From the NCBI GenBank assembly GCA_964615345.1, contig CAZTMR010000003.1:3322-66295 (forward strand): a stretch of DNA of 62,974 bases, written 5' to 3'. The position numbers and the translations under genes were made by a program. The notes below the pieces were generated by a model, which saw nothing but the letters and a program-made list of their open reading frames with translations, had not been told where the DNA came from and ran no database searches. Position 1 is the stretch's first letter. Each line of letters starts with the position of its first letter. This DNA is from an uncultured Dehalococcoidaceae bacterium (lineage in GTDB: Bacteria; Chloroflexota; Dehalococcoidia; Dehalococcoidales; RBG-16-60-22). Below, piece by piece: positions 20,356 to 62,974 of this stretch.

Positions 20356-22092
<1,737 letters not shown>

Positions 22093-34472: not shown

Positions 34473-34523
34473 ATGCTTCAAGTTTAGCAAAATCAGGCCG
34501 TCTTGCAAAGGCTGACCGGCCGG

Positions 34524-46955: not shown

Positions 46956-47180
46956 TCAAGGCTTAACGGTAAACCCCTGCTTTTCCAGCTCCGCAATCAC
47001 TTCCGCCAGGTCCTTACCCTGCCTTTCACAGCCCCGGGGAAGGGTGGTTGCCCGGCCCAGAGTGTTCCTGACCACGGGATTGGCCACGCCGAAAAATCCC
47101 ATCTCTTTCAGGATACCAATGAGCTCCGGGTAGTCTTCAGTCAGCGCATAGACGCTTTTCTTCAGGTCAATCTCTTTCAT
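46956..47180 (-). CDS. DUF1858-domain protein (ScdA N-terminal-like)
   Basis: MKEIDLKKSVYALTEDYPELIGILKEMGFFGVANPVVRNTLGRATTL. Start ATG 47180 overlaps the upstream gene end by 14 nt. Confidence 0.75.
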   Translation of the reverse strand: MKEIDLKKSVYALTEDYPELIGILKEMGFFGVANPVVRNTLGRATTLPRGCERQGKDLAEVIAELEKQGFTVKP

Positions 47181-48676: not shown

Positions 48677-51007
48677 ATGATATCCCTGTCCAACCTGGCT
48701 TTACAGAAAAAAATAAGTTTGCTGGTCCTGGTGGGGCTGGTGGTGGGACTGGGACTCTTCAGCTGGCTGGGCATCCAATCGCTGAGAGAGAGTACGGACC
48801 GGGTGCTGGCGGAGCGGCTGACCATCGCCCGTATCATGGCGGACCACCTGGACGAAACATTGACCCACACCCTGACCCACCTGCAGAGCGCGGCTGGTCT
48901 GATTGACCGCCTGCCTCCGGGAGAGGGTTTCCACCGGGCAACCGATTCATTAAGGCAGATGTTTGCCGAATCCGGTATCCACATAAACGGCATCATCCTG
49001 GCCGATAAAAGCGGTGGCATCGTCCGGGTGGAGCCGGAAGATACCACGCTTACCGGGCCGGATATGTTCCGGGACGCAGAAATAAAGCGGGCACTGGGGG
49101 CGGGCCGGCCGGTCATATCCAACCTGGTTGCCAGCCAGCAGATAGAAATGCCGACGATTCTGGCGGCAGCCCCGGTCTACGATGGAGACGGTGACATCAT
49201 CGGGGTGCTGGCCGCCTCCATTGACGTGGAGCGGTCCGGTCTGGGCAGCTTTGGCCGCAACATCGAGATAGGCGATACCGGCTACACCGAGGTGGTGGAC
49301 GGCAACGGACTGGTCCTGGCCCGCAGTATGCCCGGTTCTCCGCCGGTGGCTTTCGAAAGGAGCGATCATCCCGGCCGCTTCGCCGAATTGATAGACGAAG
49401 GACAGGCGAGTGTCAGGACCTGCCACCGGTGCCACGAGGCGGAGGGGCAGGAGGTGGAAAGGCGCCGTGATGTGCTCGCTTTCGCCCCGCTCAGTTCGGC
49501 GACGTGGGGGGTAGCCATCCGCCAGGCGGAAGAGGAAGCCCTTGCCCCGACCCGGCAACTGGAGAGGAGGTTTCTCTTCCTGGGAGCGGCGGTCCTGGTA
49601 GGGGCCCTGTTGCTGGCGTGGGTAATGATGCGGGGAATCATCAGGCCGGTCAGGCTCCTCACCGCCGCGGCGCAAAAAGTAGCCGCCGGCAATTTCAAGG
49701 CGGCCGTTCCCATCAACCGCCGGGACGAGATAGGTCAGCTCAGCGATGCGTTTTCCACGATGACGGAAGAGCTCTCCATATCAAGAGACGAGCTAATGTC
49801 ACGTAACGAAGCCCTGTCCGCGCTCAACACCATCTCCGCCACGGTGAGCCAGTCACTAAACCTGAAGCAGGTACTGACCACCGCCCTGGAAAAAGTGCTG
49901 GAAGTTACCCGGACCAGTGCCGGCTGCGTGTTTCTCAGCGGTGACGGGGGCCGCCGGCTGGAGGTAGCGACCTGTATCGGGACGTCCAGGTTTTTCGAAT
50001 GCCGGGAAGCCGGCACGGCGGCCGCCGGTTGCGCCTGCCACCAGACGCTGAAGTGCGGGGAGACACTGCTGGTAAACCACGTCTCGCAGTGTCCCCGGTT
50101 CGGTGACGAGACCCTGCAGGAAACCGTTGATTACTTTGTCTGCGTTCCGCTCAAGTCCAGAGACAGGGTGCTTGGGGTTATGAATATTGCCGCAAGCGGG
50201 GAGCCCGGCTTCACGGAGGACGATTTCCACCTGCTCGACTCTATCGGCAGCCAGATTGGGCTGGCGATAGAAAACTCAATTCTTTACGAGGAAAGCAGGC
50301 AGAAAGAGCAGCTGCGGGGAGAGTTGCTGAACAGTGTCATCAGCGCCCAGGAAGAAGAACGCAAGCGGATTGCGCGGGAGCTGCATGACGATTACGGACA
50401 GACCCTGACCAGCGTAATCATGAGCATGGAATCGGTCGAGGAGATGCTCCCGGCGGGGAAATCAAAACTGAAAGAAAAGATAAGCGGCTCCCGGTCACTG
50501 GTGGCGCGCGCCCTGGAAGACATGCGCCGTTTGACCTTTGACCTGCGGCCCTCGGTACTGGATGACCTGGGCCTGAGCAGCGCCATCCGGGAATATGCCC
50601 AGAACCACCTGGAAGCAAAGGGCATAACGGTGAAATATGAGGGTAACGGTCTGCCGGTGAGACTGCCGGCGGCGGTGGAGACGGCGCTGTTCCGGATTAT
50701 CCAGGAAGCCATTCATAACATCGCCAAACACGCCGGCGCCACTCAGGTCAGGATGCAACTTTCCCTGAGTGATGGTAATATTACGGCAACAGTGGAAGAT
50801 AACGGCAGGGGGTTTGACGTAAACGCCGCTCTCAGGACAGATACCGGCCGACAGCCGATGGGCCTCCTGGGTATCAGGGAAAGGACGGCATTGCTCGGAG
50901 GCAGCTTTACCATCAGCTCAGAGACAGGGAAAGGAACTCGCCTGAAAGTGGAAATACCGGCGGGCCTATCCGCTTCCGGTCCCGGTGGCGGGAAAGAGAC
51001 CGGGTAA
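48677..51007 (+). CDS. Sensor histidine kinase: extracytoplasmic Cache-like domain (with CXXCH) - HAMP - GAF - HisKA_3 - HATPase
   Basis: TM1 at about aa 13-33 and TM2 at about aa 287-307. HAMP follows TM2, then a GAF-like region. H-box EERKRIARELHDDYGQ (NarX/LiaS type). ATPase motifs DNGRGF and GLLGIRER. Confidence 0.9.
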   Translation: MISLSNLALQKKISLLVLVGLVVGLGLFSWLGIQSLRESTDRVLAERLTIARIMADHLDETLTHTLTHLQSAAGLIDRLPPGEGFHRATDSLRQMFAESGIHINGIILADKSGGIVRVEPEDTTLTGPDMFRDAEIKRALGAGRPVISNLVASQQIEMPTILAAAPVYDGDGDIIGVLAASIDVERSGLGSFGRNIEIGDTGYTEVVDGNGLVLARSMPGSPPVAFERSDHPGRFAELIDEGQASVRTCHRCHEAEGQEVERRRDVLAFAPLSSATWGVAIRQAEEEALAPTRQLERRFLFLGAAVLVGALLLAWVMMRGIIRPVRLLTAAAQKVAAGNFKAAVPINRRDEIGQLSDAFSTMTEELSISRDELMSRNEALSALNTISATVSQSLNLKQVLTTALEKVLEVTRTSAGCVFLSGDGGRRLEVATCIGTSRFFECREAGTAAAGCACHQTLKCGETLLVNHVSQCPRFGDETLQETVDYFVCVPLKSRDRVLGVMNIAASGEPGFTEDDFHLLDSIGSQIGLAIENSILYEESRQKEQLRGELLNSVISAQEEERKRIARELHDDYGQTLTSVIMSMESVEEMLPAGKSKLKEKISGSRSLVARALEDMRRLTFDLRPSVLDDLGLSSAIREYAQNHLEAKGITVKYEGNGLPVRLPAAVETALFRIIQEAIHNIAKHAGATQVRMQLSLSDGNITATVEDNGRGFDVNAALRTDTGRQPMGLLGIRERTALLGGSFTISSETGKGTRLKVEIPAGLSASGPGGGKETG

Positions 51008-51030
51008 ACGGTTTTGAAGGAGGTACGGCG

Positions 51031-51690
51031 ATGGGCAAGATACGGGTACTGATTGCCGACGACCACGTGCTGGTCCGGGAAGGACTGCGGACACTCATCG
51101 AGGCGCAGCCGGATATCGAAGTGGTTGCCGAGGCCACCAACGGCGAAGAGGCGGTACGGCTAGCGGAGGAGGCCATTCCGGATATCATCCTGATGGACAT
51201 CACCATGCCGGGGACAAACGGCCTGGAGGCCACCCGCCGGATAAAACGGGACCAGCCGGAGATAAAAATCCTGGTACTGACCATGCACGAGAGCGACGAG
51301 TATTTCTTTAAAATACTGGAAGCCGGGGCGTCCGGCTATTTCATCAAGGGAGGGTCTTCCAACGAGCTTATTTCCGCCATACGGACGGTCTGCCGGGGTG
51401 AAGCCTTCATCTATCCGACGATGGCGAACAAACTTCTCAGCGATTATATGAAGCGGGTACAGACCGGACAGGATGAAGAGAGGTATGACGGCCTGACGAA
51501 AAGGCAGAGAGAAATCCTCAAGCTCATCGCTGAAGGGCACACCAATCAGGAGATTGCTGACCTGCTGGTGCTCAGCGTGGCCACCGTGCAGACCCACCGC
51601 GCCCACATAATGTCCAAACTGGAATTTCGCAGTCGCACCGAACTCATCAAGTACGCCATCCGGCACGGTTTTATCCGGCTGGATACTTAG
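51031..51690 (+). CDS. NarL/LuxR-family response regulator
   Basis: VLIADDH...LMDITMPGTNG...VLTM..., plus GerE HTH (LTKRQREILKLIAEGHTNQEIADLLVLSVATVQTHR). Confidence 0.95.
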   Translation: MGKIRVLIADDHVLVREGLRTLIEAQPDIEVVAEATNGEEAVRLAEEAIPDIILMDITMPGTNGLEATRRIKRDQPEIKILVLTMHESDEYFFKILEAGASGYFIKGGSSNELISAIRTVCRGEAFIYPTMANKLLSDYMKRVQTGQDEERYDGLTKRQREILKLIAEGHTNQEIADLLVLSVATVQTHRAHIMSKLEFRSRTELIKYAIRHGFIRLDT

Positions 51691-51848
51691 TTTCAAGTAT
51701 CCCCCCTACAATTTTCCGTTACGTCAGTTTCCGCAAGATACACACTCCACAGTACGCAGGTTCCCCTGTGCTCAGGATTTCCCGGCCCCGCGTTCCGTGC
51801 TAACCTTCCGGATATAAACCAGAGGAGAGCGCCCGGAGAGGTGTCATT

Positions 51849-52532
51849 ATGCCAAAGCAGTTTGCCAGGGTAATCGTGGCTTCAGAGCATCCCAGAATGC
51901 GGTACCGGTTGAAAGAGCTGGTGGAGGACGAGCCGGGGACGGTGGTTATCGGGCAGGCGGAAAACGCGGCCCGGGCGCTGGCTCTCGCCCGGAAGCTGAG
52001 GCCTGACTTTGCCGTCATCGATAGCTATCTTCCCCATGTGGTGGGAATGGATACCATTCCGTTATCACGTGCCGGCGGCCTGGACACGGCCCAGGTCATC
52101 TCTGAAGAGATACCGCACGTCAGAGTGATACTGCTGACCAACGCGGAAAAAGGGATACCTCCCGGCAGCAGTTTCAGGCAGGATGTCGCCCTGTCCTACG
52201 CGCGCAAAGAGCTGGAAGCCAGCGTTCCACTCAAGCTGCGGGAGCTTTACTGCGATACGGTAAAGCCCTGCTCGCTCGTCTTCGCCAATATCGAACCGCT
52301 GGCCCGGCCTTCTGACCGGGGAAAACTGGCGGAGATAAGCGGCACCGCTATTTTCCTGGGAGGCATCGGGGTTCTGGCCGGGCTGGGGCTTATTGCCACC
52401 CTGGTGCTGGCCCGGGCGGGGGGAATTATCGCGCTGGCCGGGGGCGCGGCCATGCTTTTCGGAATCGCCGGTAAACTGATTGCCGCGGTACGCTCCCGTT
52501 CCGCTCCGGGCGGGAATACCGGCGGCAGGTAA
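51849..52532 (+). CDS. Atypical receiver-like domain with C-terminal Gly-rich double-TM anchor
   Basis: REC-like layout (VIVASEH in place of DD, AVIDSYLP, VILLTN). It is followed by ISGTAIFLGGIGVLAGLGLIATLVLARAGGIIALAGGAAMLFGIAGKLIAAV. Confidence 0.6.
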   Translation: MPKQFARVIVASEHPRMRYRLKELVEDEPGTVVIGQAENAARALALARKLRPDFAVIDSYLPHVVGMDTIPLSRAGGLDTAQVISEEIPHVRVILLTNAEKGIPPGSSFRQDVALSYARKELEASVPLKLRELYCDTVKPCSLVFANIEPLARPSDRGKLAEISGTAIFLGGIGVLAGLGLIATLVLARAGGIIALAGGAAMLFGIAGKLIAAVRSRSAPGGNTGGR

Positions 52533-52601
52533 AACGGACCTAACCCCGCGGCAAAAGTCCGCCACGGCAAAGGCGCGGCAGAAAGGCCGAGACAGGCAGG
52601 A

Positions 52602-53084
52602 ATGAACGCAGCGCAAGTTCTCCACAGGTGTCCGGTTTTTGCCGAACTTACCCGCTACGAGCTGGGCAAGATAGCCGCTTTTGCTGCCCATAGAGAGTAC
52701 GCCGCCGGAGACACCATCTGCTGGGAGCAGGACAGTGCGGAAGAGCTCCTGGTGCTCGAGAAAGGGAAATTGGCGCTGCAAATGACGGTTCCGGCCACGC
52801 CCACGCAGAAAGCAAGGCAGGTAACCGTGGACGTGATTACCGACAATGAAGTGGCCGGCTGGTCGATAGTCGTCGAGCCGTTCGTCTACACTTTTACCGC
52901 CATCTGTCTCCAGAACACTTCCGTGGTGGCCATTAACGGCGCCCGGCTCCGGGAGCTATTCCGGAGGGACAGTCAAACAGGCTACAAGGTGATGAAGGGG
53001 CTTATCAGTGTGGTGGCGGCGCGGCTGGACGATACCCGGCGCCTGCTGCTGAGCGAACGGATGCAAACCCCCCGGGAAGATTGA
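52602..53084 (+). CDS. Stand-alone cyclic-nucleotide-binding-domain protein
   Basis: CPVFAELTRYELGKIA...YAAGDTICWEQDSAEELLVLEKGKL is a cNMP-binding beta-barrel pattern. At 160 aa there is no HTH or other output domain. Confidence 0.8.
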   Translation: MNAAQVLHRCPVFAELTRYELGKIAAFAAHREYAAGDTICWEQDSAEELLVLEKGKLALQMTVPATPTQKARQVTVDVITDNEVAGWSIVVEPFVYTFTAICLQNTSVVAINGARLRELFRRDSQTGYKVMKGLISVVAARLDDTRRLLLSERMQTPRED

Positions 53085-53183
53085 CCTCTTCCCGCGCGAC
53101 AAAAAAAGACGCTGGTGCGGAGAAGACACGGCGGTTTGGAGGTAGAGTGCCGTTTCCTTCGAAGTCAAGGAAAGGTTGAAGTC

Positions 53184-54083
53184 ATGAGTATAAACCGGCG
53201 GGAGTTTATCAAGCGGGCGGTCGGCGCCGTGGGACTAACGGCAGCGCTTTCCTCGCCGCTGATGCCGGTAATCAGAAAAGCGCGGGCGACCGGGGACGAT
53301 AGCGAAGGCGCCCCGCCCGAGAAAAAAAGAAAGTGGGTGATGGTCATCGACCTGAAAAAGTGCGATGGCTGCATCGGGCTGGGGATACAGCCGCAATGCA
53401 TGAAGGCCTGCATCCAGGGGCACTACGTTCCCAAGGGGCAGAAGTGGATAGAGATTTTTGAAGATGACCTTCCCGGAGGCGGCACCTATTTCCTGCCCAC
53501 TCCCTGCTACCACTGCGATAATGCGCCCTGCGTTAACGTTTGCCCGGTGGCGGCCACCTACCACACCGAGTCCGGGGTTGTCCTCATTGACCAGCGGCGC
53601 TGCATCGGCTGCCGGATGTGCATGGCGGCCTGCCCCTACCACCGCCGTTTCTTTAACTGGGGCACTCCGGAGCTGCCCCCAGAGGCGGCTCTGGCCGAGT
53701 ATTCCCCGGAACACCAGGTGCCGGCGATAAAGGGAACGGTCATGAAATGCGATTTCTGCCCTGACATGATGCAACAGGGCAGATTACCCTTTTGCGTAAC
53801 CGCCTGTCCCCGGAAGGTGCTCTACATGGGCGATTTAACGGACGACCTTGCCTCCAACGGGGCGGAGGTGGTGAAACTTTCCCGGTTTCTCGGTGATAAC
53901 GATGCCTTCCGTTACAAGGAGGGCCTGGGTACCCAGCCCAACGTCTATTATCTGCCCGGACACGGGCAGCTCTCCGGCAGAAAGCCCGAAGACGGGCGTG
54001 ATCTCTTCCCTACCACCTGGGACTGGGGAGGAAAAGGCTACGACCGAACTTTTAATTTCTGGCCGCCAGGGGAGGCGGAATAA
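53184..54083 (+). CDS. Tat-exported 4Fe-4S subunit (NrfC/PsrB/HmcB/DsrO family)
   Basis: Twin-arginine signal NRREFIK, and four Cys clusters (CDGC..C, CYHCDNAPCVNVCP, CIGCRMCMAACP, CDFC...CVTACP). ATG 53184. Confidence 0.9.
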   Translation: MSINRREFIKRAVGAVGLTAALSSPLMPVIRKARATGDDSEGAPPEKKRKWVMVIDLKKCDGCIGLGIQPQCMKACIQGHYVPKGQKWIEIFEDDLPGGGTYFLPTPCYHCDNAPCVNVCPVAATYHTESGVVLIDQRRCIGCRMCMAACPYHRRFFNWGTPELPPEAALAEYSPEHQVPAIKGTVMKCDFCPDMMQQGRLPFCVTACPRKVLYMGDLTDDLASNGAEVVKLSRFLGDNDAFRYKEGLGTQPNVYYLPGHGQLSGRKPEDGRDLFPTTWDWGGKGYDRTFNFWPPGEAE

Positions 54084-55492
54084 TGAGACCGCGGGTGGAG
54101 AGCGAAAGTCAGCGCCTGGAACGGACGGTGCTCAGCCCTCTGGAGCGGACGGGGACAGCTTACTACGTTTTTATTTTATTTCTGCTGGGCGTAGTGGCCC
54201 TGGGGGTATACGCTTACATTACCCAGATTTATTACGGTCTGGTAGTCACCGGGATGCGGGACACGGTCTTCTGGGGGCTGTACCTGGTAAACTTCGTCTT
54301 CTTTATCGGCATCAGCCACGCCGGAACGCTCATTTCCGCCATTCTCCGGGTGACCAATGCCGGCTGGCGGACTCCCATCACCCGCATGGCGGAATTGATA
54401 ACGGTGGTGGCGATATCCATCGGCGCCCTGATGCCGATTATCGACCTGGGACACCCGGAGCGGGTGTGGCACCTTATCGCCTACGGGCGCTTCCAGTCGC
54501 CGCTGCTCTGGGACATAATCTCCATCACTTCTTACCTGACCGGGAGCCTTATCTATCTTTACCTGCCGCTCATTCCTGACTTTGCCCTGATGCGGGACCG
54601 GCTGGCGCGGAGCACCTCTACCCTGAAGCGGAAGGTTTACTCCCTGCTGGCGCTCGGCTGGAAGGACACCCCCGAGCAGCGGCACCGGCTGGAGAAGGCT
54701 ATCGGCATTATGGCGGTCACCATAATTCCCATCGCCGTTTCCGTTCACACGGTGGTCTCTTACGTTTTTTCGATGACCCTGCGCCCCGGATGGGACAGTA
54801 CCGTCTTCGGCATTTACTTCGTCATCGGGGCCATCTTTTCCGGCATAGCTTCCATCCTCATCGTCATGGCCATCTTCCGCAAGTTTTTCCACCTGGAGGA
54901 ATACATTACCGAGCGTCACTTCAAAAACCTGGGCACCCTGCTCCTGGCCACGCTGCTCATTTACCTTTACCTTACCCTCGGCGAGTACCTGACGGTGGGT
55001 TACAAGCTGGAAACGGAAGAGGAACACCTGCTCACCCTGCTGATGGTGGGGAAGAACGCTTTCTGGTTCTGGTCATTTATCATCGGCGGGCTGGTAATAC
55101 CGGGGGCGCTGCTGCTGGCCCGCCGCGGGCCGGTCATCACCAGGGTGGTCACGGCTTCCGCGCTGGTAAACGTGACCATGTGGATAAAGCGGTTCGTCAT
55201 CGTCATCCCTTCTCTCCAGGTGCCGTTGATGCCTTTCGAGTTTGGCAGCTACACCCCGACCTGGGTTGAGTGGTCCATAACCGCGGCCGCTTTTGCCGCC
55301 TTTATCCTGATTTTCGCCATTTTCGCCAAGCTGGTGCCGCTTATTTCCATCTGGGAGGTGGCGGCAGAAAGCAAGGCCACCCCGGTAAGCCGCCTGAGCT
55401 CGCTCATCGAGCGCCTGGGGATGGCGCCGGGAGAAATCGAAAGCCTGGTAAACCGGCTTATCACGGAAAGGGGCGGGCGCCGGGAGAGGTGA
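54083..55492 (+). CDS. NrfD-family integral membrane quinone-interacting subunit (ActC/HmcC/DsrP-like, about 10 TM)
   Basis: GMRDTVFWGLYLVNFVFFIGISHAGTLISAILR motif. The TAATG overlap with the FeS gene suggests coupling. Confidence 0.9.
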   Translation: MRPRVESESQRLERTVLSPLERTGTAYYVFILFLLGVVALGVYAYITQIYYGLVVTGMRDTVFWGLYLVNFVFFIGISHAGTLISAILRVTNAGWRTPITRMAELITVVAISIGALMPIIDLGHPERVWHLIAYGRFQSPLLWDIISITSYLTGSLIYLYLPLIPDFALMRDRLARSTSTLKRKVYSLLALGWKDTPEQRHRLEKAIGIMAVTIIPIAVSVHTVVSYVFSMTLRPGWDSTVFGIYFVIGAIFSGIASILIVMAIFRKFFHLEEYITERHFKNLGTLLLATLLIYLYLTLGEYLTVGYKLETEEEHLLTLLMVGKNAFWFWSFIIGGLVIPGALLLARRGPVITRVVTASALVNVTMWIKRFVIVIPSLQVPLMPFEFGSYTPTWVEWSITAAAFAAFILIFAIFAKLVPLISIWEVAAESKATPVSRLSSLIERLGMAPGEIESLVNRLITERGGRRER

Positions 55493-55540
55493 AAATGTAT
55501 CCCGGGCCGTAATCCGGCCCGGTGAACGGAGACGAAAAAA

Positions 55541-56677
55541 GTGTCAAAGGTCAAATCAGGGCTTGCGGCATTGCTGGTGGCGTTTTTGTTCTGGGTGATG
55601 GCGGCGGCGGTTCTGGCCCAGGAAGAAGTGCCGGCGCCCTACGCCGGACAGGAAAACCCCTTTGCCTGGGATGAAGAAACGGCTATCTCCGCCGGCCAGG
55701 AAATCTACAAGAAGTCATGTCTGGGCTGCCACGGCATTGCGGGTGACAACCTTGCCGGGGCCGATTTCAGCGACGCCGATTACGCCCGCCAGTTAAAAGG
55801 CAGGCCAGATTTTTCCTTCTGGATTATCAGTGAAGGAGCGCTGGAGAGGGGTATGCCGCCTTTTAAGTCATCCCTCTCCGGAGAAGAGCGGTGGCAGCTG
55901 ATAACTTATTTGCCTGCGCTGGCCGCGGCGGAGCCTCCGCCCGAAGCAAAAGAGGACGGGGCAAAAGAAACGCCGGAGACACCTTCCCCGGCGCCGGAAC
56001 AGCCGGGGGAAGAGAAAGCAACCGAACCAAACACCCTGGCGATGGCGGCACCGGAACAGGTGGCCGCCGGAGAGCCGTTGATGGTCACCGCCTACCTCCG
56101 TGACGGTGAGGAAAAGCCGGTCAGCGGCGCCGAGGTAACCTTTTTTATCGAGGTGAACTTCTTTACCCGAGACCGGGTGGAGATAGGGCGGGCGGAGACG
56201 GACGAAGACGGAATGGCCGTTCTCCATTACACTCCCCGCCCGACGGGAAACCTGCAAATAGTTGCCCGCACCGGGGAAGCCGAGACCTCGGTACCACTGC
56301 GAGTCACCGGGGGTGACGGACCGCACCGGGCAGCGGAACTGGGCGTTCCGCTGCCCGCCCCCGGGGAAGAGGTGTTTATCGGCCCTGAATCTTCCCGGTT
56401 CCTGGATGAAAGCAGCAGCGCCCCCACCAGCGCCCTCCGGCTGCCCGGCGGTATCCTTTCCTGGCTCCTGCTGGTTATCTTAACGGTAGCTCTCATCTGG
56501 TTTACCTATTTTCGCGTCGTCTACCAGATGTACCGGCTCCCGGTGCTCCGCGATATCAGAGATACTGACACCAGGCTGTTGCCCAGAATAGGGATGGTTG
56601 TTGTAGTAGTCATCGGCGCCACGCTGGTGCTGATGATACTGACGGGGCCGTACAGCCATTTCCACACGCTTCCCTGA
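55541..56677 (+). CDS. Monohaem class-I cytochrome c fused to Pro/Glu linker, beta-sandwich-like domain and two C-terminal TMs
   Basis: Signal peptide, CLGCHG haem site with downstream GMPPF Met ligand, PPPEAKEDGAKETPETPSPAPEQPGEE linker, then hydrophobic helices at the C-terminus. GTG start with GGAG 9 nt upstream. Confidence 0.8.
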   Translation: MSKVKSGLAALLVAFLFWVMAAAVLAQEEVPAPYAGQENPFAWDEETAISAGQEIYKKSCLGCHGIAGDNLAGADFSDADYARQLKGRPDFSFWIISEGALERGMPPFKSSLSGEERWQLITYLPALAAAEPPPEAKEDGAKETPETPSPAPEQPGEEKATEPNTLAMAAPEQVAAGEPLMVTAYLRDGEEKPVSGAEVTFFIEVNFFTRDRVEIGRAETDEDGMAVLHYTPRPTGNLQIVARTGEAETSVPLRVTGGDGPHRAAELGVPLPAPGEEVFIGPESSRFLDESSSAPTSALRLPGGILSWLLLVILTVALIWFTYFRVVYQMYRLPVLRDIRDTDTRLLPRIGMVVVVVIGATLVLMILTGPYSHFHTLP

Positions 56678-56679
56678 CC

Positions 56680-56721
56680 GGGCCGGATAAGGAACCCCGA
56701 TGCCGCCGCCGGCCCTCTTTT
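56680..56721 (+). terminator. Possible terminator after the cytochrome gene
   Basis: GGGCCGG (56680-56686) / CCGGCCC (56709-56715) stem with a large loop, then TCTTTT. Confidence 0.35.
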
Positions 56722-56774
56722 CCCCGGGATACCCTCCCGAGTTCACCGTATGACGGTGAAAAACACACAATACT

Positions 56775-56801
56775 TTCATTCCATCTTCATAATACCTTCA
56801 T
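56775..56801 (+). promoter_or_regulatory. Three direct TTCAT repeats at 11-bp phasing (candidate OmpR-family regulator site)
   Basis: TTCAT at 56775, 56786 and 56797, in the contexts cTTTCATt, tCTTCATa and cCTTCATa. They lie about 130-155 nt upstream of the Gly/Met-rich protein gene. Confidence 0.5.
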
Positions 56802-56929
56802 ATCTGCCTGTTATTCTGAGAGTGTACGGGGGAAGCCGGGGATGAGCCAAAACCGCCGGGGCTGCTTACCGGCAATAATATTCACCTCCCGCACAGCGAT
56901 AGAAAGAAGAAGAAAGAGGAGGAAACATT

Positions 56930-57625
56930 ATGAAAAAGCTACTGGTTATCGGTTCACTGGTGCTGCTGGGGCTTCTGGTTATCGGCTCCGCGTTCCCGGT
57001 CCTGGCGCACACGGAAGACTCTGAGGGAACGGTCGCCCCCGGCGGCATCTCTGAGAGCCATCCCACCGTGGTGAGGCTGGCAGAAGTCCTGGGGCTGACC
57101 CCGGAGGCACTCGCTGGCCTTCTCCAGGAAGGAAATAACCTTTCTGAAATTGCCGCCGAACAGGGCGTAGCCGAAGAGGCGGTGCTGGAAACAATCCTGG
57201 CCCCACACACCAGCCAGATAGAACTGCGCCTGGAGTACGGATACCTCACCCAGGAACAGGCGGATGCCATGCTGGCCGAGGCAGAAGAGCACGCCCGGTT
57301 ACTGCTGGAGCGGGACTTCTCGACTGTCGCGAGTTACGGCGACCGGGAAGAGATGGAGGAGTACTGCGGCGGGATGATGAGCGGCTGGGGCGGCCCGGCC
57401 GGGTTTGACGGCGGTATGCCACACCACGGTTACGGGATGATGGGTTACGGCGGAGGTCACGGGATGATGGGAAGCTGGAGCAGCCCGGCGGACGGATGGG
57501 AAGAAAGTCCCCGCTTCCGCAACTATGAGGAAACCGGCCGGGGAGGCTGGGGCGGCATGATGGGACGCTTCGGGAATAACCTCACCCCCGGGAGCCGGGG
57601 TGGCGGCAATATGATGGGCTGGTAA
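56930..57625 (+). CDS. Secreted protein: helical N-domain + Gly/Met/His-rich C-terminal tail
   Basis: Signal peptide ending PVLAH. A helical LTQEQADAMLAEAEEH region may be DUF2680-like (from memory). The tail has GGMMSGWGG, GGMPHHGYGMMGYGGGHGMMG, GGWGGMMG and GGGNMMGW. RBS is GAGGAGG. Confidence 0.75.
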   Translation: MKKLLVIGSLVLLGLLVIGSAFPVLAHTEDSEGTVAPGGISESHPTVVRLAEVLGLTPEALAGLLQEGNNLSEIAAEQGVAEEAVLETILAPHTSQIELRLEYGYLTQEQADAMLAEAEEHARLLLERDFSTVASYGDREEMEEYCGGMMSGWGGPAGFDGGMPHHGYGMMGYGGGHGMMGSWSSPADGWEESPRFRNYEETGRGGWGGMMGRFGNNLTPGSRGGGNMMGW

Positions 57626-57663
57626 ATACCGGCCGGTCAGGGCAAGACAGTAAACAAAGCTTG

Positions 57664-57703
57664 AAGCGGCGGCCGGGGTGTATGTCCCGGCCGCCGCTTT
57701 TTT
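57664..57703 (+). terminator. Strong rho-independent terminator
   Basis: 12-bp GC stem GCGGCGGCCGGG/CCCGGCCGCCGC (57666-57697), 8-nt loop, then TTTTTT (57698-57703). Confidence 0.85.
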
Positions 57704-57769
57704 GCATAGTTCAAAAAGTAATTGTATGCTGGTATTGACTGGTGTTAAACAGATTGGAGCGACGCAAAA

Positions 57770-58471
57770 GTGGTCAGGGGCACGATACTGGTAGTGGACG
57801 ATGAACCGAAGATGGTAGACCTGGTGCGCGCCTACCTGGAACGGGACGGCTACCGGGTGGCCGAGGCGGGGGACGGACGCCAGGCCCTTGAGGTCTTCCG
57901 TAAGGTGTCACCAGACCTGATTGTCCTTGACCTGATGCTGCCGGAAATGGACGGTCTGGAAGTGTGCCGGGAGATACGCCGGACATCAGACGTACCCGTC
58001 ATTATGCTCACCGCCCGCGATGACGACGCGGACAAGCTGATAGGGCTGGAAATCGGCGCCGATGACTACATCACCAAGCCCTTCAGCCCCCGGGAGCTGG
58101 TGGCGAGGGTGCGGGTGGTGCTGCGCCGGGTCCGGCCGGAGACGCCGGCCCGGCCTGAAGGGCGGCTGGTCCACGGCGAACTGGTGCTCGACCAGGAACG
58201 GGTGGAAGTGAGCTGCCACGGGCAACCGCTGCCGCTTACCCTGACCGAATTCCGCATCCTGGCCGCCCTGGCGGCTTCACCCGGGCGGGTGCTTTCCCGT
58301 TCCCGGCTGCTGGACGCGCTGGGAGAGACCTACGAAGGTTACGAGCGCACCATAGACGTCCACATCAAGAACCTGCGGCGCAAAATGAATGCGGCCGGCG
58401 CCGGGAAGGGCTGTAGCATCGCCACCGTGCACGGTCTGGGCTACAAGCTTCAGGAGTCACCGGATGTTTAG
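57770..58471 (+). CDS. OmpR/PhoB-family response regulator
   Basis: ILVVDDEPKM...LDLMLPEMDG...MLTA...DDYITKPF, plus a winged helix (LTLTEFRILAALA...IDVHIKNLRRKM). GTG start. Confidence 0.95.
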   Translation: MVRGTILVVDDEPKMVDLVRAYLERDGYRVAEAGDGRQALEVFRKVSPDLIVLDLMLPEMDGLEVCREIRRTSDVPVIMLTARDDDADKLIGLEIGADDYITKPFSPRELVARVRVVLRRVRPETPARPEGRLVHGELVLDQERVEVSCHGQPLPLTLTEFRILAALAASPGRVLSRSRLLDALGETYEGYERTIDVHIKNLRRKMNAAGAGKGCSIATVHGLGYKLQESPDV

Positions 58472-59606
58472 CTGGTTGAAGCCAGACCGGTTATCGGTGA
58501 GGCTTGGCGCGGCTTTCCTGCTGGCCGCCCTGGCCGGAATCGGTCTGGTGGCCGTGCTGGCTTACCAGAATACTTCCAACGAGTTCAATTCGTTTTTGGC
58601 TCACGTGGAGGCGATGGAGCGGGCGATGGGGGGCGGAATGATGGGCGGAATGATGGGCAGCCGGGCTTTTCTCCAGGCACAGCGGGACTTCCTGGACAGC
58701 CTGGGGCAGACGCTCCTTATCGCCGGAATTTCCGGCGCGCTCCTGGCGATAATTCTCAGCGGCCTGTTCGCCCGGCAAATCGTGAGACCCCTGGATAAAG
58801 TGGCCTCCGCGGCGCGGCGCGTGGCGGGAGGCGATTTCAATCAACGGGTGGAAATCAGCGGTTCCAGTGAAATCGCCGAGCTGGGACAGTCCTTCAATAC
58901 CATGGCGGCAACTCTGAGCCATGACCGCGAAACGCGACAGAAAATGGCGGCTGACATCGCCCACGAGCTGCGCACACCCCTTTCCATATTACAGGGCAAC
59001 GTAGAGGCGATGCTGGACGGAGTTATGCAGACGGACCGGAAAAACCTGGAGTCACTGCACCAGGAGACGGCGCACCTGACCCGGCTGGTGGAAGACCTGC
59101 GCATCCTTTCTCTGGCCGAAGCCGGACAGCTCAGCTTTCAGCCGGTGAGCACCGATATGAGGAAACTCGCCGGGCAGATTACGGAAACGTTCCGTACCCG
59201 TTTCTCTCAAAAGAACATCAGGTTTTCCCTGGAAACCCCGGATGACCTGCCTCCGGCGCTGGCGGACCCGGACCGGACGGCGCAGGTACTGCGCAACCTG
59301 CTCAACAACGCCCTCCAGTACACGCCGGAAGGAGGTCAAGTAACGGTGAAGCTGACCCCGGAGCAGGAGAGTATTACCATCTCGGCACGGGACAGCGGCT
59401 CGGGTATCCCTGCCGAGCACCTGTCCCGTATCTTTGACCGTTTTTACCGGGTTGACCGTTCCCGCCGGCGCAGCACGGGGGGCTCCGGCCTGGGGCTGGC
59501 CATAGTGAAACAGCTCACGGAGGCACAGGGCGGCCGGGTGTGGGCGGAAAGCGAACCGGACCAGGGCAGCTCTTTCTTCGTCCGGCTGCCACGGGCAGAC
59601 CGGTAA
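58464..59606 (+). CDS. Sensor histidine kinase (2 TM, short Met/Gly-containing loop, HAMP, HisKA, HATPase)
   Basis: ATG 58464 overlaps the regulator stop. Loop is ...HVEAMERAMGGGMMGGMMGSRAF.... H-box is AADIAHELRTPLS. ATPase motifs are DSGSGIP and GSGLGLAIV. Confidence 0.9.
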   Translation: MFSWLKPDRLSVRLGAAFLLAALAGIGLVAVLAYQNTSNEFNSFLAHVEAMERAMGGGMMGGMMGSRAFLQAQRDFLDSLGQTLLIAGISGALLAIILSGLFARQIVRPLDKVASAARRVAGGDFNQRVEISGSSEIAELGQSFNTMAATLSHDRETRQKMAADIAHELRTPLSILQGNVEAMLDGVMQTDRKNLESLHQETAHLTRLVEDLRILSLAEAGQLSFQPVSTDMRKLAGQITETFRTRFSQKNIRFSLETPDDLPPALADPDRTAQVLRNLLNNALQYTPEGGQVTVKLTPEQESITISARDSGSGIPAEHLSRIFDRFYRVDRSRRRSTGGSGLGLAIVKQLTEAQGGRVWAESEPDQGSSFFVRLPRADR

Positions 59607-59639
59607 AAAACCTTCCCCCGGTTATTCCCTGGTCACCGG

Positions 59640-59873
59640 CTATCTTTGCCGGCGCACCAGATAGTGCCCGATGAGAAAGCCTAGGCTACCCAGAACAAAG
59701 AGCATGGCCAGGATGACCAGCTGCAGGCTGCCCAGGAAGCTGCAGGCCCCGGGGATAACAAAGAGGACCAGCAGGCCCGCCACCAGGCTGGAAACGGCCA
59801 GGAAACCGCCGGTCAGCCGGAGCAGCTCTCTGCCCGTGGTGTTGGGGTTGAACGCAGGATTCAGGGTTACCAT
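59640..59873 (-). CDS. Small two-TM membrane protein (77 aa), last gene of the decahaem operon
   Basis: GGGAGG 7 nt upstream of the ATG, two hydrophobic helices, 37 nt downstream of the NrfD-like gene. Confidence 0.6.
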   Translation of the reverse strand: MVTLNPAFNPNTTGRELLRLTGGFLAVSSLVAGLLVLFVIPGACSFLGSLQLVILAMLFVLGSLGFLIGHYLVRRQR

Positions 59874-59910
59874 AGGGCTACCTCCCTTGCTTGTCTATCT
59901 TCAAGCACGG

Positions 59911-61086
59911 TTAAAAACTGAACCTTCTTCTTTCCGGCGCTTTAGCGGTTTCCTCCCGCCACGGCGGCAGCAGATAGGCGATAACCGCCAGAAGAACGAA
60001 AGGGAACAGCGTCAGCGTTACCGCGGTAACTATCCCCTCCAGCCCCAGCAGGGGCGGGGTATAGCTGGTGAACCCGCGCAGGCTTTTTGACATCAGCTGC
60101 CCGCCGATGACCACATTCCAGCGCATGGCAAACACGCCGATAAGCACCAGGACCGAGGTCAGCGCCCGGATAAACGTTTTGTGGCGGGCCTCCAGGTCAA
60201 CGATTTCCACGCCACCCAGGACGATTAGAGGCAGCAGGGCGCCGAGCAGGAACTGGATGCCAAAGTAGCTCACCCCGATAACTTCGGTTATCAGGCGGGA
60301 GACTATTTCCCAGCTTTCTTCGGCCTCGTAGAGCATGGAAAATACTTCCAGCCCTTCCAGCACCACGTTGATGCTCAGGAAGCCGAGCAGCCAGAGGGAC
60401 ATAAACCGCAGGGCGTCATGGTCCAGCCGGGCTTTCCTGATTCTGGTTACCAGGACGTAGAGGACAATGAGCAGGGCGATGCCGGAGACGGTAGCTGACA
60501 TCAGGAAGATGACCGGCATCAGCGGAGTTGACCACCAGGGGTTGGCCTTGATTGCCCCGAAGATAAAGCCCACGTAGCCGTGGAGCAGAAAAGCGGTGGG
60601 GATTCCGATGAAAGCAAGCACTTTAATAATTTTTTCGTCAACGGCGCGTGCCCGTTCCGATATCCGGTACACGCCCAGGGCGAGGACGGCGTAAATGGTT
60701 TTCAGAGTGCCCTCGCTGGAATGGTAGTAACGCACGATGTCTTCCCGGAAAACCAGCCAGACTTCACCCGTCACCATCAGCAGGTAGAAAAACCAGATGT
60801 AACCGAAAGCGGACATCGCCGAGTTCAGGTTCGGCGTCAGGAACATCTCGAAAGCCCTTTCCGGTCGGCCCAGGTGGATGGTCAAGGGCAGGGGGGTTAC
60901 CAGCAGAAAAGCCAGCGCCGTAACCAGTGAAAAACGGGCGACGGGCTCCAGCCTTTTCAGCCCGAAGACGTGGTAAAGCGAAGAGACGATGAAAGCGCCG
61001 GCCACCAGGCCGGTAATATAAGGATAGATGACGATAAGCAGGTCCCACTCGATGACGCCTTCGTTAGGGTAAATGAATCCCGCCAC
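59911..61086 (-). CDS. NrfD/PsrC-family integral membrane quinone-interacting subunit (about 8-9 TM)
   Basis: EWDLLIVIYPYITGLVAGAFIV...HLGRPERAFEMF motifs typical of the NrfD/PsrC type. Confidence 0.9.
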   Translation of the reverse strand: MAGFIYPNEGVIEWDLLIVIYPYITGLVAGAFIVSSLYHVFGLKRLEPVARFSLVTALAFLLVTPLPLTIHLGRPERAFEMFLTPNLNSAMSAFGYIWFFYLLMVTGEVWLVFREDIVRYYHSSEGTLKTIYAVLALGVYRISERARAVDEKIIKVLAFIGIPTAFLLHGYVGFIFGAIKANPWWSTPLMPVIFLMSATVSGIALLIVLYVLVTRIRKARLDHDALRFMSLWLLGFLSINVVLEGLEVFSMLYEAEESWEIVSRLITEVIGVSYFGIQFLLGALLPLIVLGGVEIVDLEARHKTFIRALTSVLVLIGVFAMRWNVVIGGQLMSKSLRGFTSYTPPLLGLEGIVTAVTLTLFPFVLLAVIAYLLPPWREETAKAPERRRFSF

Positions 61087-61089
61087 GAC

Positions 61090-61893
61090 CTAATGCACCC
61101 CCTTTTCGAAGCCGATATAGTAGACCTTGGGTTCGGTGCCCAGGTCCGGTTTCAAGACGTAGACGCGCTTTTCCCGGAGCACCGTTTTCACCACGCTCTG
61201 CGGGTCACGCAGGTCCCCAAACGCTCTGGCGCCCACCGGGCACGCTTCCACGCAGGCCGGCAAAAGGCCCCGGCTTATCCGGTGGTAACACCAGGTGCAC
61301 TTATCAACGACCCCCTCTTCCGGCAGGAAAAATCTCGCGCCGTAGGGGCAGGCCTGAATGCAGTAGCGGCAACCGATACAGTGCTCCCGGTCAATCAGGA
61401 TTACGCCGTCATCGGTCAGGTAGGTGGCACCAACCGGGCACACCTTCACACAGGGAGGGTCGTCACACTGGTTGCACAGCTTGGGGATGAAAAAACTTTT
61501 CCGGATATTCAGCCCCCGGTATTTGGCGTTCATATGCTCGGCGGCAAACCCGTCCCGGCCGCCGTTGGGCGAGTCCACGAAGATTTCTCCGTCCTCGGTA
61601 ATGATGTATCTTTCCACCCAGGTGCGGTTGAACTCCGGTTCCCAGGGGACCCCGTTTTCCAGTTTGCAGGCGACGACACAGCGCCCGCAGCCGATGCATT
61701 TCTCGTTATCACAGACAAAGCCCCAGTAATGCTTCTCCCAGCTTTCCTCCCCTATCTTCGCCGGGCCCAGAGAACTCGGGCCATCCTGGGCCTGCGCCGT
61801 GTTCCGGCGCAGGGACGGCACCGCGCCGGCCACGGCTCCCCCGAGCAATCCGGCCGAACCGAGTTTGATAAAGTCCCGCCGCGTTATTTTCAT
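61090..61893 (-). CDS. Tat-exported 4Fe-4S subunit (NrfC/PsrB/HybA family)
   Basis: MKITRRDFIK twin-arginine signal. Cys clusters CIGCGRCVVAC, CNQCDDPPCVKVCP, CIGCRYCIQACP, CTWC...CVEACP. ATG 61893 follows GAGGGAGG. Confidence 0.9.
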   Translation of the reverse strand: MKITRRDFIKLGSAGLLGGAVAGAVPSLRRNTAQAQDGPSSLGPAKIGEESWEKHYWGFVCDNEKCIGCGRCVVACKLENGVPWEPEFNRTWVERYIITEDGEIFVDSPNGGRDGFAAEHMNAKYRGLNIRKSFFIPKLCNQCDDPPCVKVCPVGATYLTDDGVILIDREHCIGCRYCIQACPYGARFFLPEEGVVDKCTWCYHRISRGLLPACVEACPVGARAFGDLRDPQSVVKTVLREKRVYVLKPDLGTEPKVYYIGFEKGVH

Positions 61894-61903
61894 TTTTCCT
61901 CCC

Positions 61904-62875
61904 TCAGGTCCCGCTGTGACAGCCGGTACAGGTGTCACTGGTGCGTCCGGAGTGGTCTTCCGGCACGGCCAGGTCTCCCGCGGAATGGCACATCAGGCAA
62001 TCTTCCCGCCCTTCCAGGTCATGCGGTATCCGGGTGGGCCCGTCAGCGGTCTCTGCTGGCTCCGGAACCATCTCCGGAACCGGAGAAGGCGTTACCGGGG
62101 CGGACGCCACCGGTGCGGCTATTTTTACTTCCGCGGGCTGGTGACAGATCTGGCAGGAAACGCTTTTCCGGCCGATATGGTCTGCCGGAAAAGGCTTGAT
62201 AGCGCCGGAGTTGTGGCATTCCAGACAGTCTTCCCTTCCCTCCAGAGAATGGGGGATGTGAGGCAGTTCCAGGCCCCTGACTTCTTCCGGTCCGTGGCAG
62301 GTGAGACACTCCGTACGCCCTTCCAGGGTATGGGGAACGATGGGCGGGGGCTCTTCCCAGAACTCGTGTTTACCGTGGCAGGACTGGCACTCGGCGCGGT
62401 CCTCCAGGGAGTGGGGGACCTGGGGCGGCATCCCTGCTCGCGGTTCGTGCGGGTCATGGCAGCTGACACATTTTTCACCGTGACCCATCTCCGCCATATC
62501 CACCTGGGGAAAACCGGCGGGACGGGAAACAAGCCGGGCATGGCAGGTGCCGCAGAGTTCCCGCTCCGTACTCAGCCTGAGCGGTGCGCCCGTATCCAGA
62601 TGTTCCCGGGCCGGGCCGTGGCAGTTTTCACAGCTCACAGTCTGGTGGTCCCCTTTTTGCCACATGGCATAATTTTCCTGGTGGCAATCAGCACACAGTG
62701 AAGAACTGGCGAACTGCATCGGCAGAGCGGCCCATTCATGCCGGTTGGCTTCTTTATCCGGCTGGTGAAAACCGTAATCGGCCAGGGTATCCGGCACCGG
62801 CATCACTCTCAGGCCGATGAAAACGAAGCCCAGCACCGCCGCCAGCAAAAGGCCCGCCCTTTTCAAATGCGTCAT
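61904..62875 (-). CDS. Membrane-anchored decahaem c-type cytochrome
   Basis: N-terminal hydrophobic anchor. Ten CXXCH motifs: CADCH, CENCH, CGTCH, CVSCH, CQSCH, CLTCH, CLECH, CQICH, CLMCH, CTGCH. Confidence 0.9.
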   Translation of the reverse strand: MTHLKRAGLLLAAVLGFVFIGLRVMPVPDTLADYGFHQPDKEANRHEWAALPMQFASSSLCADCHQENYAMWQKGDHQTVSCENCHGPAREHLDTGAPLRLSTERELCGTCHARLVSRPAGFPQVDMAEMGHGEKCVSCHDPHEPRAGMPPQVPHSLEDRAECQSCHGKHEFWEEPPPIVPHTLEGRTECLTCHGPEEVRGLELPHIPHSLEGREDCLECHNSGAIKPFPADHIGRKSVSCQICHQPAEVKIAAPVASAPVTPSPVPEMVPEPAETADGPTRIPHDLEGREDCLMCHSAGDLAVPEDHSGRTSDTCTGCHSGT

Positions 62876-62974
62876 CTATCAGCGTCTTCCCGCCTTTACT
62901 TTTTCCGGGTTACCCGGCGGCTATTTCCCGCTCAGCCGGGAAAGACCGGAGAGGGCATTCTGGATGTCTACCGT

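Follow-up and report, generated by a model that had tools for sequence, protein, structure and literature searches.

What do two membrane modules of the NrfC-NrfD type accomplish when neither is accompanied by a gene for a catalytic subunit? The question is raised by a cluster of 14 genes (positions 48,677 to 62,875) in a 62,974-nucleotide stretch of DNA from an uncultured Dehalococcoidaceae bacterium (Chloroflexota; Dehalococcoidales; RBG-16-60-22; contig CAZTMR010000003.1), which we refer to in its entirety as the window. Module 1 consists of an iron-sulfur protein (FeS1), an NrfD-like membrane subunit (NrfD1) and a monohaem cytochrome c; module 2 consists of a decahaem cytochrome c, a second iron-sulfur protein (FeS2), a second membrane subunit (NrfD2) and a 77-amino-acid membrane protein. 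A preliminary description of this DNA had read both modules as quinol:cytochrome conduits with no catalytic subunit in the window, and our analysis, which finds each to be a complete unit without one, favours the same function. We consider it reasonably probable, at roughly 60%, that the two modules are menaquinol-oxidising complexes that deliver electrons to tethered c-type cytochromes, under the control of a haem-sensing kinase (HK1) and with a Band_7/SPFH protein as scaffold.

Pfam analysis of the large open reading frames (ORFs) of the window revealed no molybdopterin oxidoreductase. A molybdopterin gene was likewise absent from seven Pfam-annotated loci (L002, L004, L007, L008 and L090-L092) among the related genome loci used for comparison (L001-L092), and no molybdopterin enzyme was found among 10 large ORFs adjoining the trio of cytochrome, iron-sulfur protein and NrfD in other genomes; these encode a GH65 hydrolase, phosphorylases, CDC48, a TonB receptor, DNA polymerase III and CcmF. 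The adjacent catalytic subunit of a terminal reductase of the Psr, Ttr or Nrf type, whether a molybdopterin enzyme or NrfA, is thus missing from the window, from the annotated relatives and from the 10 large neighbouring ORFs, extending the absence noted for the window in the preliminary description. In the module 2 loci, a cytochrome always stands in place of the catalytic subunit.

The preliminary description supposed that the operon could extend past the end of the window, and named a catalytic subunit just beyond the edge as a finding that would count against its reading; the gene cut there encodes a Band_7/SPFH protein instead. The truncated product ends in ...TVDIQNALSGLSRLSGK before the stop codon and matches the C-terminus of a 253-amino-acid ORF in the same position in L009 (7385-8146), which ends in ...TIDIQSALAGIQKLSGK and scores 127.5 bits against PF01145 (Band_7/SPFH). 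Over 20 related Chloroflexota loci encode Band_7 proteins of 65-85% identity. In nearly all of these loci the gene lies upstream of the modules, and the Band_7 proteins are better conserved across them than the cytochromes. This conserved position before the modules, together with an NfeD-Band_7 arrangement in L090, suggests a scaffolding role, and the protein probably scaffolds the electron-transfer complexes.

Comparison with solved structures assigned NrfD1 to the ActC type of alternative complex III. The protein matched the ActC chains 6lod_C (E = 2e-67), 6f0k_C (3e-67), 8k9e_C and 6btm_C over its full length, with E values from 2e-67 to 1e-60, and aligned to ActC residues 26-451; ActF was matched weakly (E = 4e-8). 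Two ActC residues, Ser164 and Asp169, are kept as Ser139 and Asp144 in the motif FQSPLLWD. ActC His139 corresponds to Asp121 in NrfD1, and an Asp also occupies this position in DsrP, QrcD and NhcC (PMC8076601).

Its iron-sulfur partner, FeS1, is a protein of 299 amino acids with an RREFIK twin-arginine translocation (Tat) motif and four Cys clusters, and scores 79 bits against Fer4_11. The best PDB matches of FeS1 were ArrB, PsrB and residues 795-957 of ActB, with ActB no closer than the other two, and its best NCBIfam match was DsrO, at 173.7 bits against a cut-off of 200. Assignment to DsrMKJOP failed on this score, on the score of NrfD1 (128 against 350) and on the absence of DsrMKJ-like genes from the window.

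The module 1 cytochrome comprises a signal peptide, a haem site (C60xxCH), a GMP motif containing Met105, a Pro/Glu-rich linker, a possible Ig-like domain (Big_1, 24.7 bits, below the cut-off of 34.9) and two C-terminal membrane helices. Alignment of seven orthologues revealed that the haem site and the Gly-Met-Pro motif are invariant and that the C-terminal helices are conserved. This pattern suggests that the Met of Gly-Met-Pro is probably the axial haem ligand, and the helix pair may dock on NrfD1. Searched against the PDB at an E value of 0.01 or better, the cytochrome matched no chain from an alternative complex III entry.

Module 1 therefore combines likeness to and difference from alternative complex III (6f0k, 6btm, 6lod, 8k9e). 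Beside the ActC-type NrfD with its retained Ser and Asp, the four-cluster iron-sulfur protein and the monohaem cytochrome parallel ActB2 and ActE. The cytochrome may have a role similar to that of ActE, but it gave no match to ActE in that PDB search and has two membrane helices of its own. Module 1 also lacks the pentahaem ActA, the molybdopterin-like ActB1 domain, ActD and ActF. The absence of ActA, the ActB1 domain and ActF makes module 1 a pared-down relative of alternative complex III and not a member of it. The earlier idea of a pared-down alternative complex III fits this module, given its ActC-type NrfD. The FeS-NrfD-cytochrome trio recurs in L007, L008, L010, L011, L012 and L092. L007, the closest relative of module 1, additionally carries two short ORFs between the cyclic-nucleotide-binding protein gene and FeS1 (7267-8047) that are absent from the window; one encodes 191 amino acids with a collagen-like stretch and the other 60 amino acids with an EB_dh (haem-b/DOMON-like) match, and together they may represent a broken gene.

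To place module 2, we scanned one genome per species with NrfD2 and obtained 80 loci from Chloroflexota, Candidatus Methanoperedens, Thermincola, Clostridia, Hydrothermarchaeota and a spirochaete. The order cytochrome-FeS-NrfD is kept in these loci wherever the sequence reaches that far; nearly all of the 38 archaeal loci share the order of the window, two short ones being cut at the 5' end. Identity to NrfD2 was 57-85% in Chloroflexota, 53-56% in Candidatus Methanoperedens and related archaea (38 loci), 50-55% in Thermincola, Clostridia and other Firmicutes (6 loci) and 48% in the one spirochaete, making the Methanoperedens proteins the next-best group by identity after those of Chloroflexota.

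In the window, the module 2 cytochrome contains a single anchor helix at its N-terminus and exactly ten CXXCH motifs; its 15 additional His residues are sufficient for bis-His ligation of all ten haems. Its orthologues have about four haem sites in archaea and Firmicutes and six, eight or ten in Chloroflexota, with ten found only in the window and its closest relatives. The decahaem protein corresponds to the octahaem version with a Pro/Ala/Val-rich linker and a duplicated dihaem unit added. Weak local matches to MccA and the octahaem nitrite reductases at the haem motifs led to no assignment to a solved structure. Across the orthologues in L001-L088, the haem count climbs by twos (4, 6, 8, 10) through duplicated units of approximately 27 to 50 amino acids, of the form PHxLEGRxxCxxCH / xDHxGRxxxxCxxCH, and L002 contains a separate 101-amino-acid ORF of such haem units (965-1270).

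FeS2 has an RRDFIK Tat motif and four Cys motifs; it matched PsrB (2vpw_B) at E = 5e-46, and its best NCBIfam matches, TtrB (210 against 416) and DsrO, lay below the cut-off. The NrfD2 sequence gave no match in the PDB, either singly or as a 20-sequence profile. Its AlphaFold 2 (AF2) model (predicted local distance difference test 80.6; predicted template-modelling score 0.84) superposed on ActC with template-modelling (TM) scores of 0.76-0.79, on PsrC with a target-normalised TM score of 0.61 and on ActF with 0.54-0.57, pointing to a predicted fold of two four-helix bundles as in ActC and PsrC. The NrfD2-homologue ORF appears to extend C-terminally in L035, L037, L049, L062 and L064 (765-801 amino acids) and in L038-L040 (788-868 amino acids); in the scanned cases, the extension consists of NHL repeats (L035, L049) or an FAD_binding_4/FAD-oxidase domain (L040, Hydrothermarchaeota).

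The 77-amino-acid membrane protein has no Pfam match. Orthologues follow NrfD2 in L001 (88% identity) and in L012, L018, L022, L025, L027 and L028 (41-66%), and in many Dehalococcoidales loci the ORF after NrfD2 is small and has membrane helices. Against the curated Hmc, Ttr, Nrf, Dsr and Qrc models, all NCBIfam equivalog scores fell below the cut-off, including HmcA (17 against 400), HmcB (92.3 against 420), HmcC (31.6 against 550) and the NrfD equivalog model (65 against 348 bits).

The preliminary description had held that the subunit combinations match no described complex. For module 2 this does not stand, in view of the Methanoperedenaceae cluster family and the architectures of NhcABCD and Geobacter Cbc4. 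Leu et al. 2020 described Methanoperedenaceae clusters of NrfD-like protein, 4Fe-4S protein and multihaem cytochrome as putative menaquinone:cytochrome c oxidoreductases, and found that the Methanoperedenaceae NrfDs group with RBG-16-60-22, a family of Dehalococcoidales (PMC7327174). In agreement, NrfD2 shares 73% identity with the RBG_16_60_22 NrfD (L026). Expression of an NrfD/FeS operon that includes 3- and 6-haem cytochromes is high in Mn(IV)-dependent methane oxidation (PMC7082337), and the function of the Methanoperedenaceae clusters is a prediction supported by such expression data. These clusters share with module 2 an anchored multihaem cytochrome, a 4Fe-4S protein (53-57% identical) and an NrfD in the same order, the NrfD and FeS matches extending over the full length. 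They differ in having approximately four haem sites in a cytochrome of 149 amino acids (the upstream Methanoperedens cytochrome has three CXXCH motifs and one longer motif), whereas module 2 has ten haems, a 77-amino-acid membrane protein after NrfD2 and a Band_7 gene before the cytochrome.

NhcABCD, which likewise has no catalytic subunit, resembles module 2 in combining a multihaem cytochrome and a four-cluster iron-sulfur protein with an NrfD-like subunit of 10 helices and a small membrane protein (PMC8076601). In contrast to the Nhc and Hmc proteins, the cytochrome of module 2 is anchored in the membrane and consists of repeated PHxLEGRxxCxxCH units, not of c3-type domains, and the direction of electron flow proposed here is opposite to that of NhcABCD and HmcABCDEF. 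Cbc4 of Geobacter sulfurreducens (CbcSTU, GSU0068-0070), a proposed quinol:cytochrome c oxidoreductase, consists of a membrane-anchored tetrahaem cytochrome, a four-[4Fe-4S] protein and an integral membrane subunit (bioRxiv 10.1101/2025.04.14.648717). Compared by architecture alone, it follows the same plan as the four-haem versions of module 2; module 2 of the window differs from it in its ten haems, its small extra subunit and its single-membrane cell. Collectively, these comparisons identify module 2 as a conserved variant of an already-described cytochrome-FeS-NrfD family.

Can both NrfD subunits react with a quinone? Profile-profile alignment identified NrfD1 and NrfD2 as distant homologues (probability 98.6%, 23% identity), with Asp121 and Ser139 of NrfD1 aligned to the invariant His71 and Ser89 of NrfD2. 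According to Calisto and Pereira, a helix-2 acid or His and a nearby Ser are present in every quinone-reactive NrfD and absent from ActF (PMC8076601). Both NrfDs of the window keep these two marker positions, consistent with a predicted quinone site in each. Furthermore, a Rieske/cytochrome b complex precedes module 2 in L018 (5983-8199) and L022 (248-2562), implying a quinone pool in this lineage. In these two Dehalococcoidales, the genes between Band_7 and the trio encode a Rieske protein, a cytochrome b and a fusion of the C-terminal part of cytochrome b with a cytochrome c (3 CXXCH).

Both NrfDs have hundreds of homologues at 67-95% identity, the named ones deriving from metagenome assemblies of Dehalococcoidales, Dehalococcoidia or Chloroflexota. 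In L010, L011, L012 and L071, FeS1, NrfD1, its cytochrome, a multihaem cytochrome, FeS2 and NrfD2 lie side by side on one strand; L012 has a kinase, a regulator and Band_7 ahead of this array and the small membrane protein behind it. Relative to the L012-type order, the window has the block from Band_7 to the small protein inverted and three genes inserted, encoding a Gly/Met-rich protein, response regulator RR2 and histidine kinase HK2. In L002, L004, L011 and L019, module 2 is instead preceded by a divergent cytochrome-FeS-NrfD set approximately 36% identical to module 1. L011 also contains a CcmF-type cytochrome c maturation gene (15264-17246) approximately 4 kb downstream of the two modules, with a gene for an 844-amino-acid cytochrome carrying nine CXXCH motifs in between.

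The genes upstream of module 1 begin with HK1, a sensor histidine kinase that carries a CHRCH motif at residue 249. The motif lies between membrane helices 15-33 and 299-317 and therefore faces outward. The sensor region scores 50.5 bits against dCache_1, and its AF2 model displays a classical double (tandem) Cache fold, with dCache sensors as the best Foldseek matches; the motif comes after the third strand in the modelled membrane-proximal Cache module. Of 11 sensor homologues that share only some 30% identity with HK1, 9 retain CH[RT]CH, and in close homologues the motif is invariant together with a nearby Ser-Asp-His. A profile search of 1.84 billion representative proteins recovered 442 clusters of the family at an E value of 1e-30 or better; CHxCH occurs at about residue 246 in 122 of the 154 members read, and all named members are Chloroflexota. 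Three distant members adjoin membrane cytochrome modules: a multihaem cytochrome, a cytochrome b, another multihaem cytochrome, NfeD and Band_7 in L090, a c7-like cytochrome in L091 and a module-1-type trio in L092.

A preprint by Deshpande et al. (2026, PMC12889525) assigns haem-c Cache sensors to the DUF3365/PF11845 single-Cache family, which it reports to bind nitric oxide (NO) and to be rare in Chloroflexota or missing from them. HK1 resembles these sCache_haem proteins (DUF3365/Tll0287, PF11845; GSU0582, GSU0935) in having an extracytoplasmic Cache-type sensor with a conserved CXXCH, and the modelled position of its motif resembles the insertion described for them. It differs in its double Cache (PF02743), in the location of the motif in the membrane-proximal module and in its Chloroflexota family. 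HK1 did not match PF11845 at an E value of 0.01 or better; this result and the double-Cache fold led us to reject membership of sCache_haem. The HK1 proteins thus look like a separate, apparently undescribed double-Cache family with a haem-c motif, and this kinase family is the most original element of the region.

The signalling genes are co-conserved with the modules, a point on which the preliminary description had made its reading depend. In L007, module 1 is preceded by the kinase, the NarL-type regulator RR1, a membrane-anchored receiver and a stand-alone cyclic-nucleotide-binding protein, with identities of 61-79%, the receiver and the cyclic-nucleotide-binding protein (the latter in the same position) each being 61% identical. 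An RR1-type regulator follows the kinase in L007, L090, L091 and L092. The receiver protein has hydrophobic helices at residues 160-198 and keeps the context of the phospho-acceptor Asp (VID), with 'SE' in place of the usual acidic 'DD' pair. Within 9 kb upstream of module 2 on the same strand, a kinase was present in 15 and a regulator in 17 of 34 Chloroflexota loci, and in 3 and 5, respectively, of the 6 Firmicutes loci. The bacterial versions differ in this respect from those of Methanoperedenaceae, since neither type of gene was found in any of the 38 archaeal loci.

In the mechanism that we favour, each complex would oxidise menaquinol, and a c-type cytochrome anchored to the single membrane at its outer face would receive the electrons. 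In module 2, quinol would be oxidised in NrfD2 near the outer face, and electrons would run through the four clusters of FeS2 to the decahaem cytochrome, a putative low-potential bis-His wire leading to other cytochromes or to extracellular acceptors. In module 1, the ActC-type NrfD and the four-cluster iron-sulfur protein would supply the predicted His/Met monohaem cytochrome held by its own C-terminal helices, an exit that is probably of higher potential. The two modules would represent two exits from the quinone pool. The dCache domain of HK1 would bind haem c, report the redox or ligand state outside the cell and control transcription of both modules.

Several observations weigh against this mechanism. 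The sequence evidence fixes no direction of electron flow, the Chloroflexota members being known from their genes alone, and no acceptor was identified for either cytochrome. The quinol ligand Asp253 of ActC is replaced by Val228 in NrfD1, NrfD2 has no equivalent of ActC Asp169, and quinone biosynthesis genes were not seen within the window. Haem attachment to HK1 is a prediction from its motif. An ActC-type module stands immediately upstream in only 6 of the 34 Chloroflexota module 2 loci, so the pairing is frequent and not obligatory, and the two modules are probably independent complexes that are often co-located rather than one obligatory supercomplex.

Electrons could also run the other way, from extracytoplasmic donors (reduced cytochromes, Fe(II), humics or a partner cell) to menaquinone, as in QrcABCD and NhcABCD. 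The architecture is identical to that of NhcABCD, to which a cytochrome c3:quinone oxidoreductase function is ascribed (PMC8076601), NrfCD modules can in principle work in both directions, and the best NCBIfam matches of module 1 include QrcC and QrcD. However, the QrcC and QrcD scores (126 against 400 and 60 against 570) lie far below the cut-off, the closest relatives outside Chloroflexota belong to electron-exporting organisms (Methanoperedens and Thermincola), the Methanoperedens operon is expressed during Mn(IV) reduction (PMC7082337), and no periplasmic hydrogenase or formate dehydrogenase lies nearby; we regard reverse flow as unlikely. A different role would dispense with quinones altogether: the NrfDs would anchor the iron-sulfur and cytochrome subunits and might conduct protons, while electrons moved between extracytoplasmic partners. 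The loss of the Asp253 ligand and the lack of quinone biosynthesis genes in the window agree with this proposal, as does a published account (PMC10772276), according to which Dehalococcoides, of the same class, lacks quinones and its NrfD-like OmeB works without them, a further point against menaquinol oxidation. The same account reports that Dehalococcoides also lacks cytochromes, however, and the cluster in the window is built around cytochromes; moreover, the quinone-reactive Asp/His and Ser positions are kept and invariant, and the quinol-requiring Rieske/cytochrome b complexes of L018 and L022 occur in the same cluster. A quinone-free role accordingly appears quite improbable.

Both FeS-NrfD pairs might, on the other hand, be ordinary anchors of the Psr, Nrf or Ttr type whose catalytic subunit (a molybdopterin reductase, a reductive dehalogenase or a haem reductase) is encoded elsewhere. 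Public annotation calls both NrfDs 'NrfD/PsrC family molybdoenzyme membrane anchor subunit', the best scores of FeS2 are against TtrB and PsrB, and up to approximately 2.6 kb of the source contig past Band_7 lies outside the window. Yet no such gene occurs in the window, in the seven Pfam-annotated loci or among the 10 large neighbouring ORFs, the cytochrome always fills the position of the catalytic subunit, and all NCBIfam equivalog scores are below the cut-off, leaving the anchor explanation very improbable. Each of the three alternatives is thus disfavoured by the evidence set against it, and menaquinol oxidation with export of electrons to the tethered cytochromes remains our preferred interpretation.

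The gene calls on which these comparisons depend are collected in the table. All 14 genes of the preliminary description were recovered, with coordinates that were exact or off by a few codons, and its haem counts, Tat signals and membrane helices were borne out. Third-position guanine-plus-cytosine (GC) content is of the coding type (0.68-0.79) in all 14 genes, and most are preceded by GGAGG-like ribosome-binding sites. The most likely starts of FeS1 (53184), FeS2 (61893) and HK2 (58464) differ slightly from those of the longest ORFs; that of FeS2 yields 267 amino acids, the same length as in the 95%-identical relative L001. The term 'island', used earlier for the region, finds no support in base composition: GC content is 0.58-0.62 across the region, as in the rest of the window, and this uniformity indicates that it is not a compositional island. 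A scan for promoters and terminators returned counts close to those of shuffled sequence, so no operon boundaries were drawn from it.

Features of the region, in window positions (Pfam cut-offs: PF03916, 25.8 bits; Fer4_11, 26.2 bits)
Feature	Positions	Strand	Basis
HK1, sensor histidine kinase	48677..51007	+	Membrane helix, dCache_1, membrane helix, HAMP, GAF, HisKA_3, HATPase_c (Pfam)
RR1, NarL/GerE-type response regulator, HK1 partner	51031..51690	+	Response_reg and GerE (Pfam)
Atypical receiver domain with two C-terminal membrane helices	51849..52532	+	Response_reg, 37.5 bits, above cut-off
Stand-alone cyclic-nucleotide-binding domain protein	52602..53084	+	PF00027, 43.5 bits
FeS1, module 1 Tat-exported ferredoxin, NrfC/PsrB/ActB2-like	53184..54083	+	Fer4_11, four cubane-type Cys motifs
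NrfD1, module 1 ActC-type NrfD-like membrane subunit, 469 amino acids	54083..55492	+	PF03916, 131.7 bits
Module 1 monohaem class-I cytochrome c	55541..56677	+	Pfam, helix prediction, orthologue alignment
Secreted Gly/Met/His-rich protein, 231 amino acids	56930..57625	+	Sequence composition
RR2, OmpR-type response regulator	57770..58471	+	Pfam
HK2, histidine kinase with HAMP, HisKA, HATPase_c	58464..59606	+	Pfam
Module 2 small membrane protein, 77 amino acids	59640..59873	-	Conserved after NrfD2 in relatives
NrfD2, module 2 NrfD-like membrane subunit, 391 amino acids	59911..61086	-	PF03916, 145.9 bits
FeS2, module 2 Tat-exported ferredoxin, four cubane-type Cys motifs	61090..61893	-	Fer4_11, 94.2 bits
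Module 2 membrane-anchored decahaem cytochrome c	61904..62875	-	Ten CXXCH
3' end of Band_7/SPFH gene, cut by window edge	62921..62974	-	C-terminal peptide match to L009

The three genes between the modules appear to stand apart. The Gly/Met/His-rich protein contains 41 Gly, 14 Met and 7 His residues; its gene has a third-position GC content of 0.74 and an AGGAGG site. No homologue was detected in 92 related loci, and Pfam and NCBIfam returned nothing meaningful. A ZraP/CpxP-type metal chaperone was considered and rejected, the likeness being compositional only (BLASTP against Escherichia coli ZraP, E = 1). The best NCBIfam matches were CreB and BaeR for RR2 and BaeS for HK2, all below the cut-off; an identification of the pair as a copper sensor was likewise rejected, as heavy-metal and Cu/Ag kinase models scored lower than BaeS/BaeR and CreB and also fell short of their cut-offs. 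RR2 is 91% identical in L001, and this near-identical locus is the only one in which RR2/HK2 stands beside module 2.

The preliminary description had counted the Gly/Met-rich protein and its OmpR/HK pair as part of the system. Outside L001 they were not seen beside module 2. The protein is probably not part of the electron-transfer system, and its gene together with RR2/HK2 looks like a local insertion, a neighbouring envelope- or metal-stress unit. The short extracytoplasmic loop of HK2 (58560-58680) contains MGGGMMGGMMGS, which echoes the Gly/Met-rich tail (57350-57625) of the secreted protein encoded two genes upstream. This hints that the loop and the secreted protein bind the same ligand, possibly a soft metal ion.

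Other genes of the window provide metabolic context. Directly upstream of HK1 and divergent from it, a minus-strand pair (46956-48390) encodes a DUF438-haemerythrin-PAS_10 protein of 407 amino acids and a DUF1858 protein, which may be another O2-, NO- or metal-sensing pair beside the redox cluster. A 1396-amino-acid protein with two BcrAD/BadFG ATPase domains and a DUF2229 domain (30318-34508, minus strand) resembles a fused activase of the 2-hydroxyacyl-CoA dehydratase or benzoyl-CoA reductase type. An aldehyde:ferredoxin oxidoreductase (75-1640), truncated N-terminally where the window begins, and a fumarate-reductase/succinate-dehydrogenase-like flavoprotein (20365-22092) fit an anaerobic metabolism.

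Uncultured Dehalococcoidia are abundant in aquifers and sediments, and to our knowledge almost nothing is known of how members outside the organohalide respirers respire. A conserved, regulated pair of conduits suggests that many Dehalococcoidia respire external or cytochrome-linked acceptors. A broader possibility, which we offer tentatively and hold to be doubtful as a whole, is that the HK1 family comprises haem-c double-Cache sensors, mostly of Chloroflexota, whose haem site was gained independently of sCache_haem. These sensors, along with Band_7 and quinol-oxidising modules that can replace one another (ActC-type, NrfD-type, Rieske/cytochrome b, and cytochrome b with multihaem cytochromes), might form a self-regulating toolkit for extracellular electron transfer that lets single-membrane Dehalococcoidia respire external acceptors, and the Dehalococcoidales might be the likely source of the NrfD-type conduit of Methanoperedens.

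Module 1 presents the ActB-ActC core of alternative complex III in a three-subunit form, in which quinol oxidation and proton movement in NrfD-type subunits could be studied. In module 2, the conduit proposed for metal-dependent methane oxidation has a bacterial relative, and the biochemistry could be easier to approach in a bacterium. Cache domains form the largest family of extracytoplasmic bacterial sensors; if the kinase does bind haem, it would represent a second route to covalent haem in Cache sensors.

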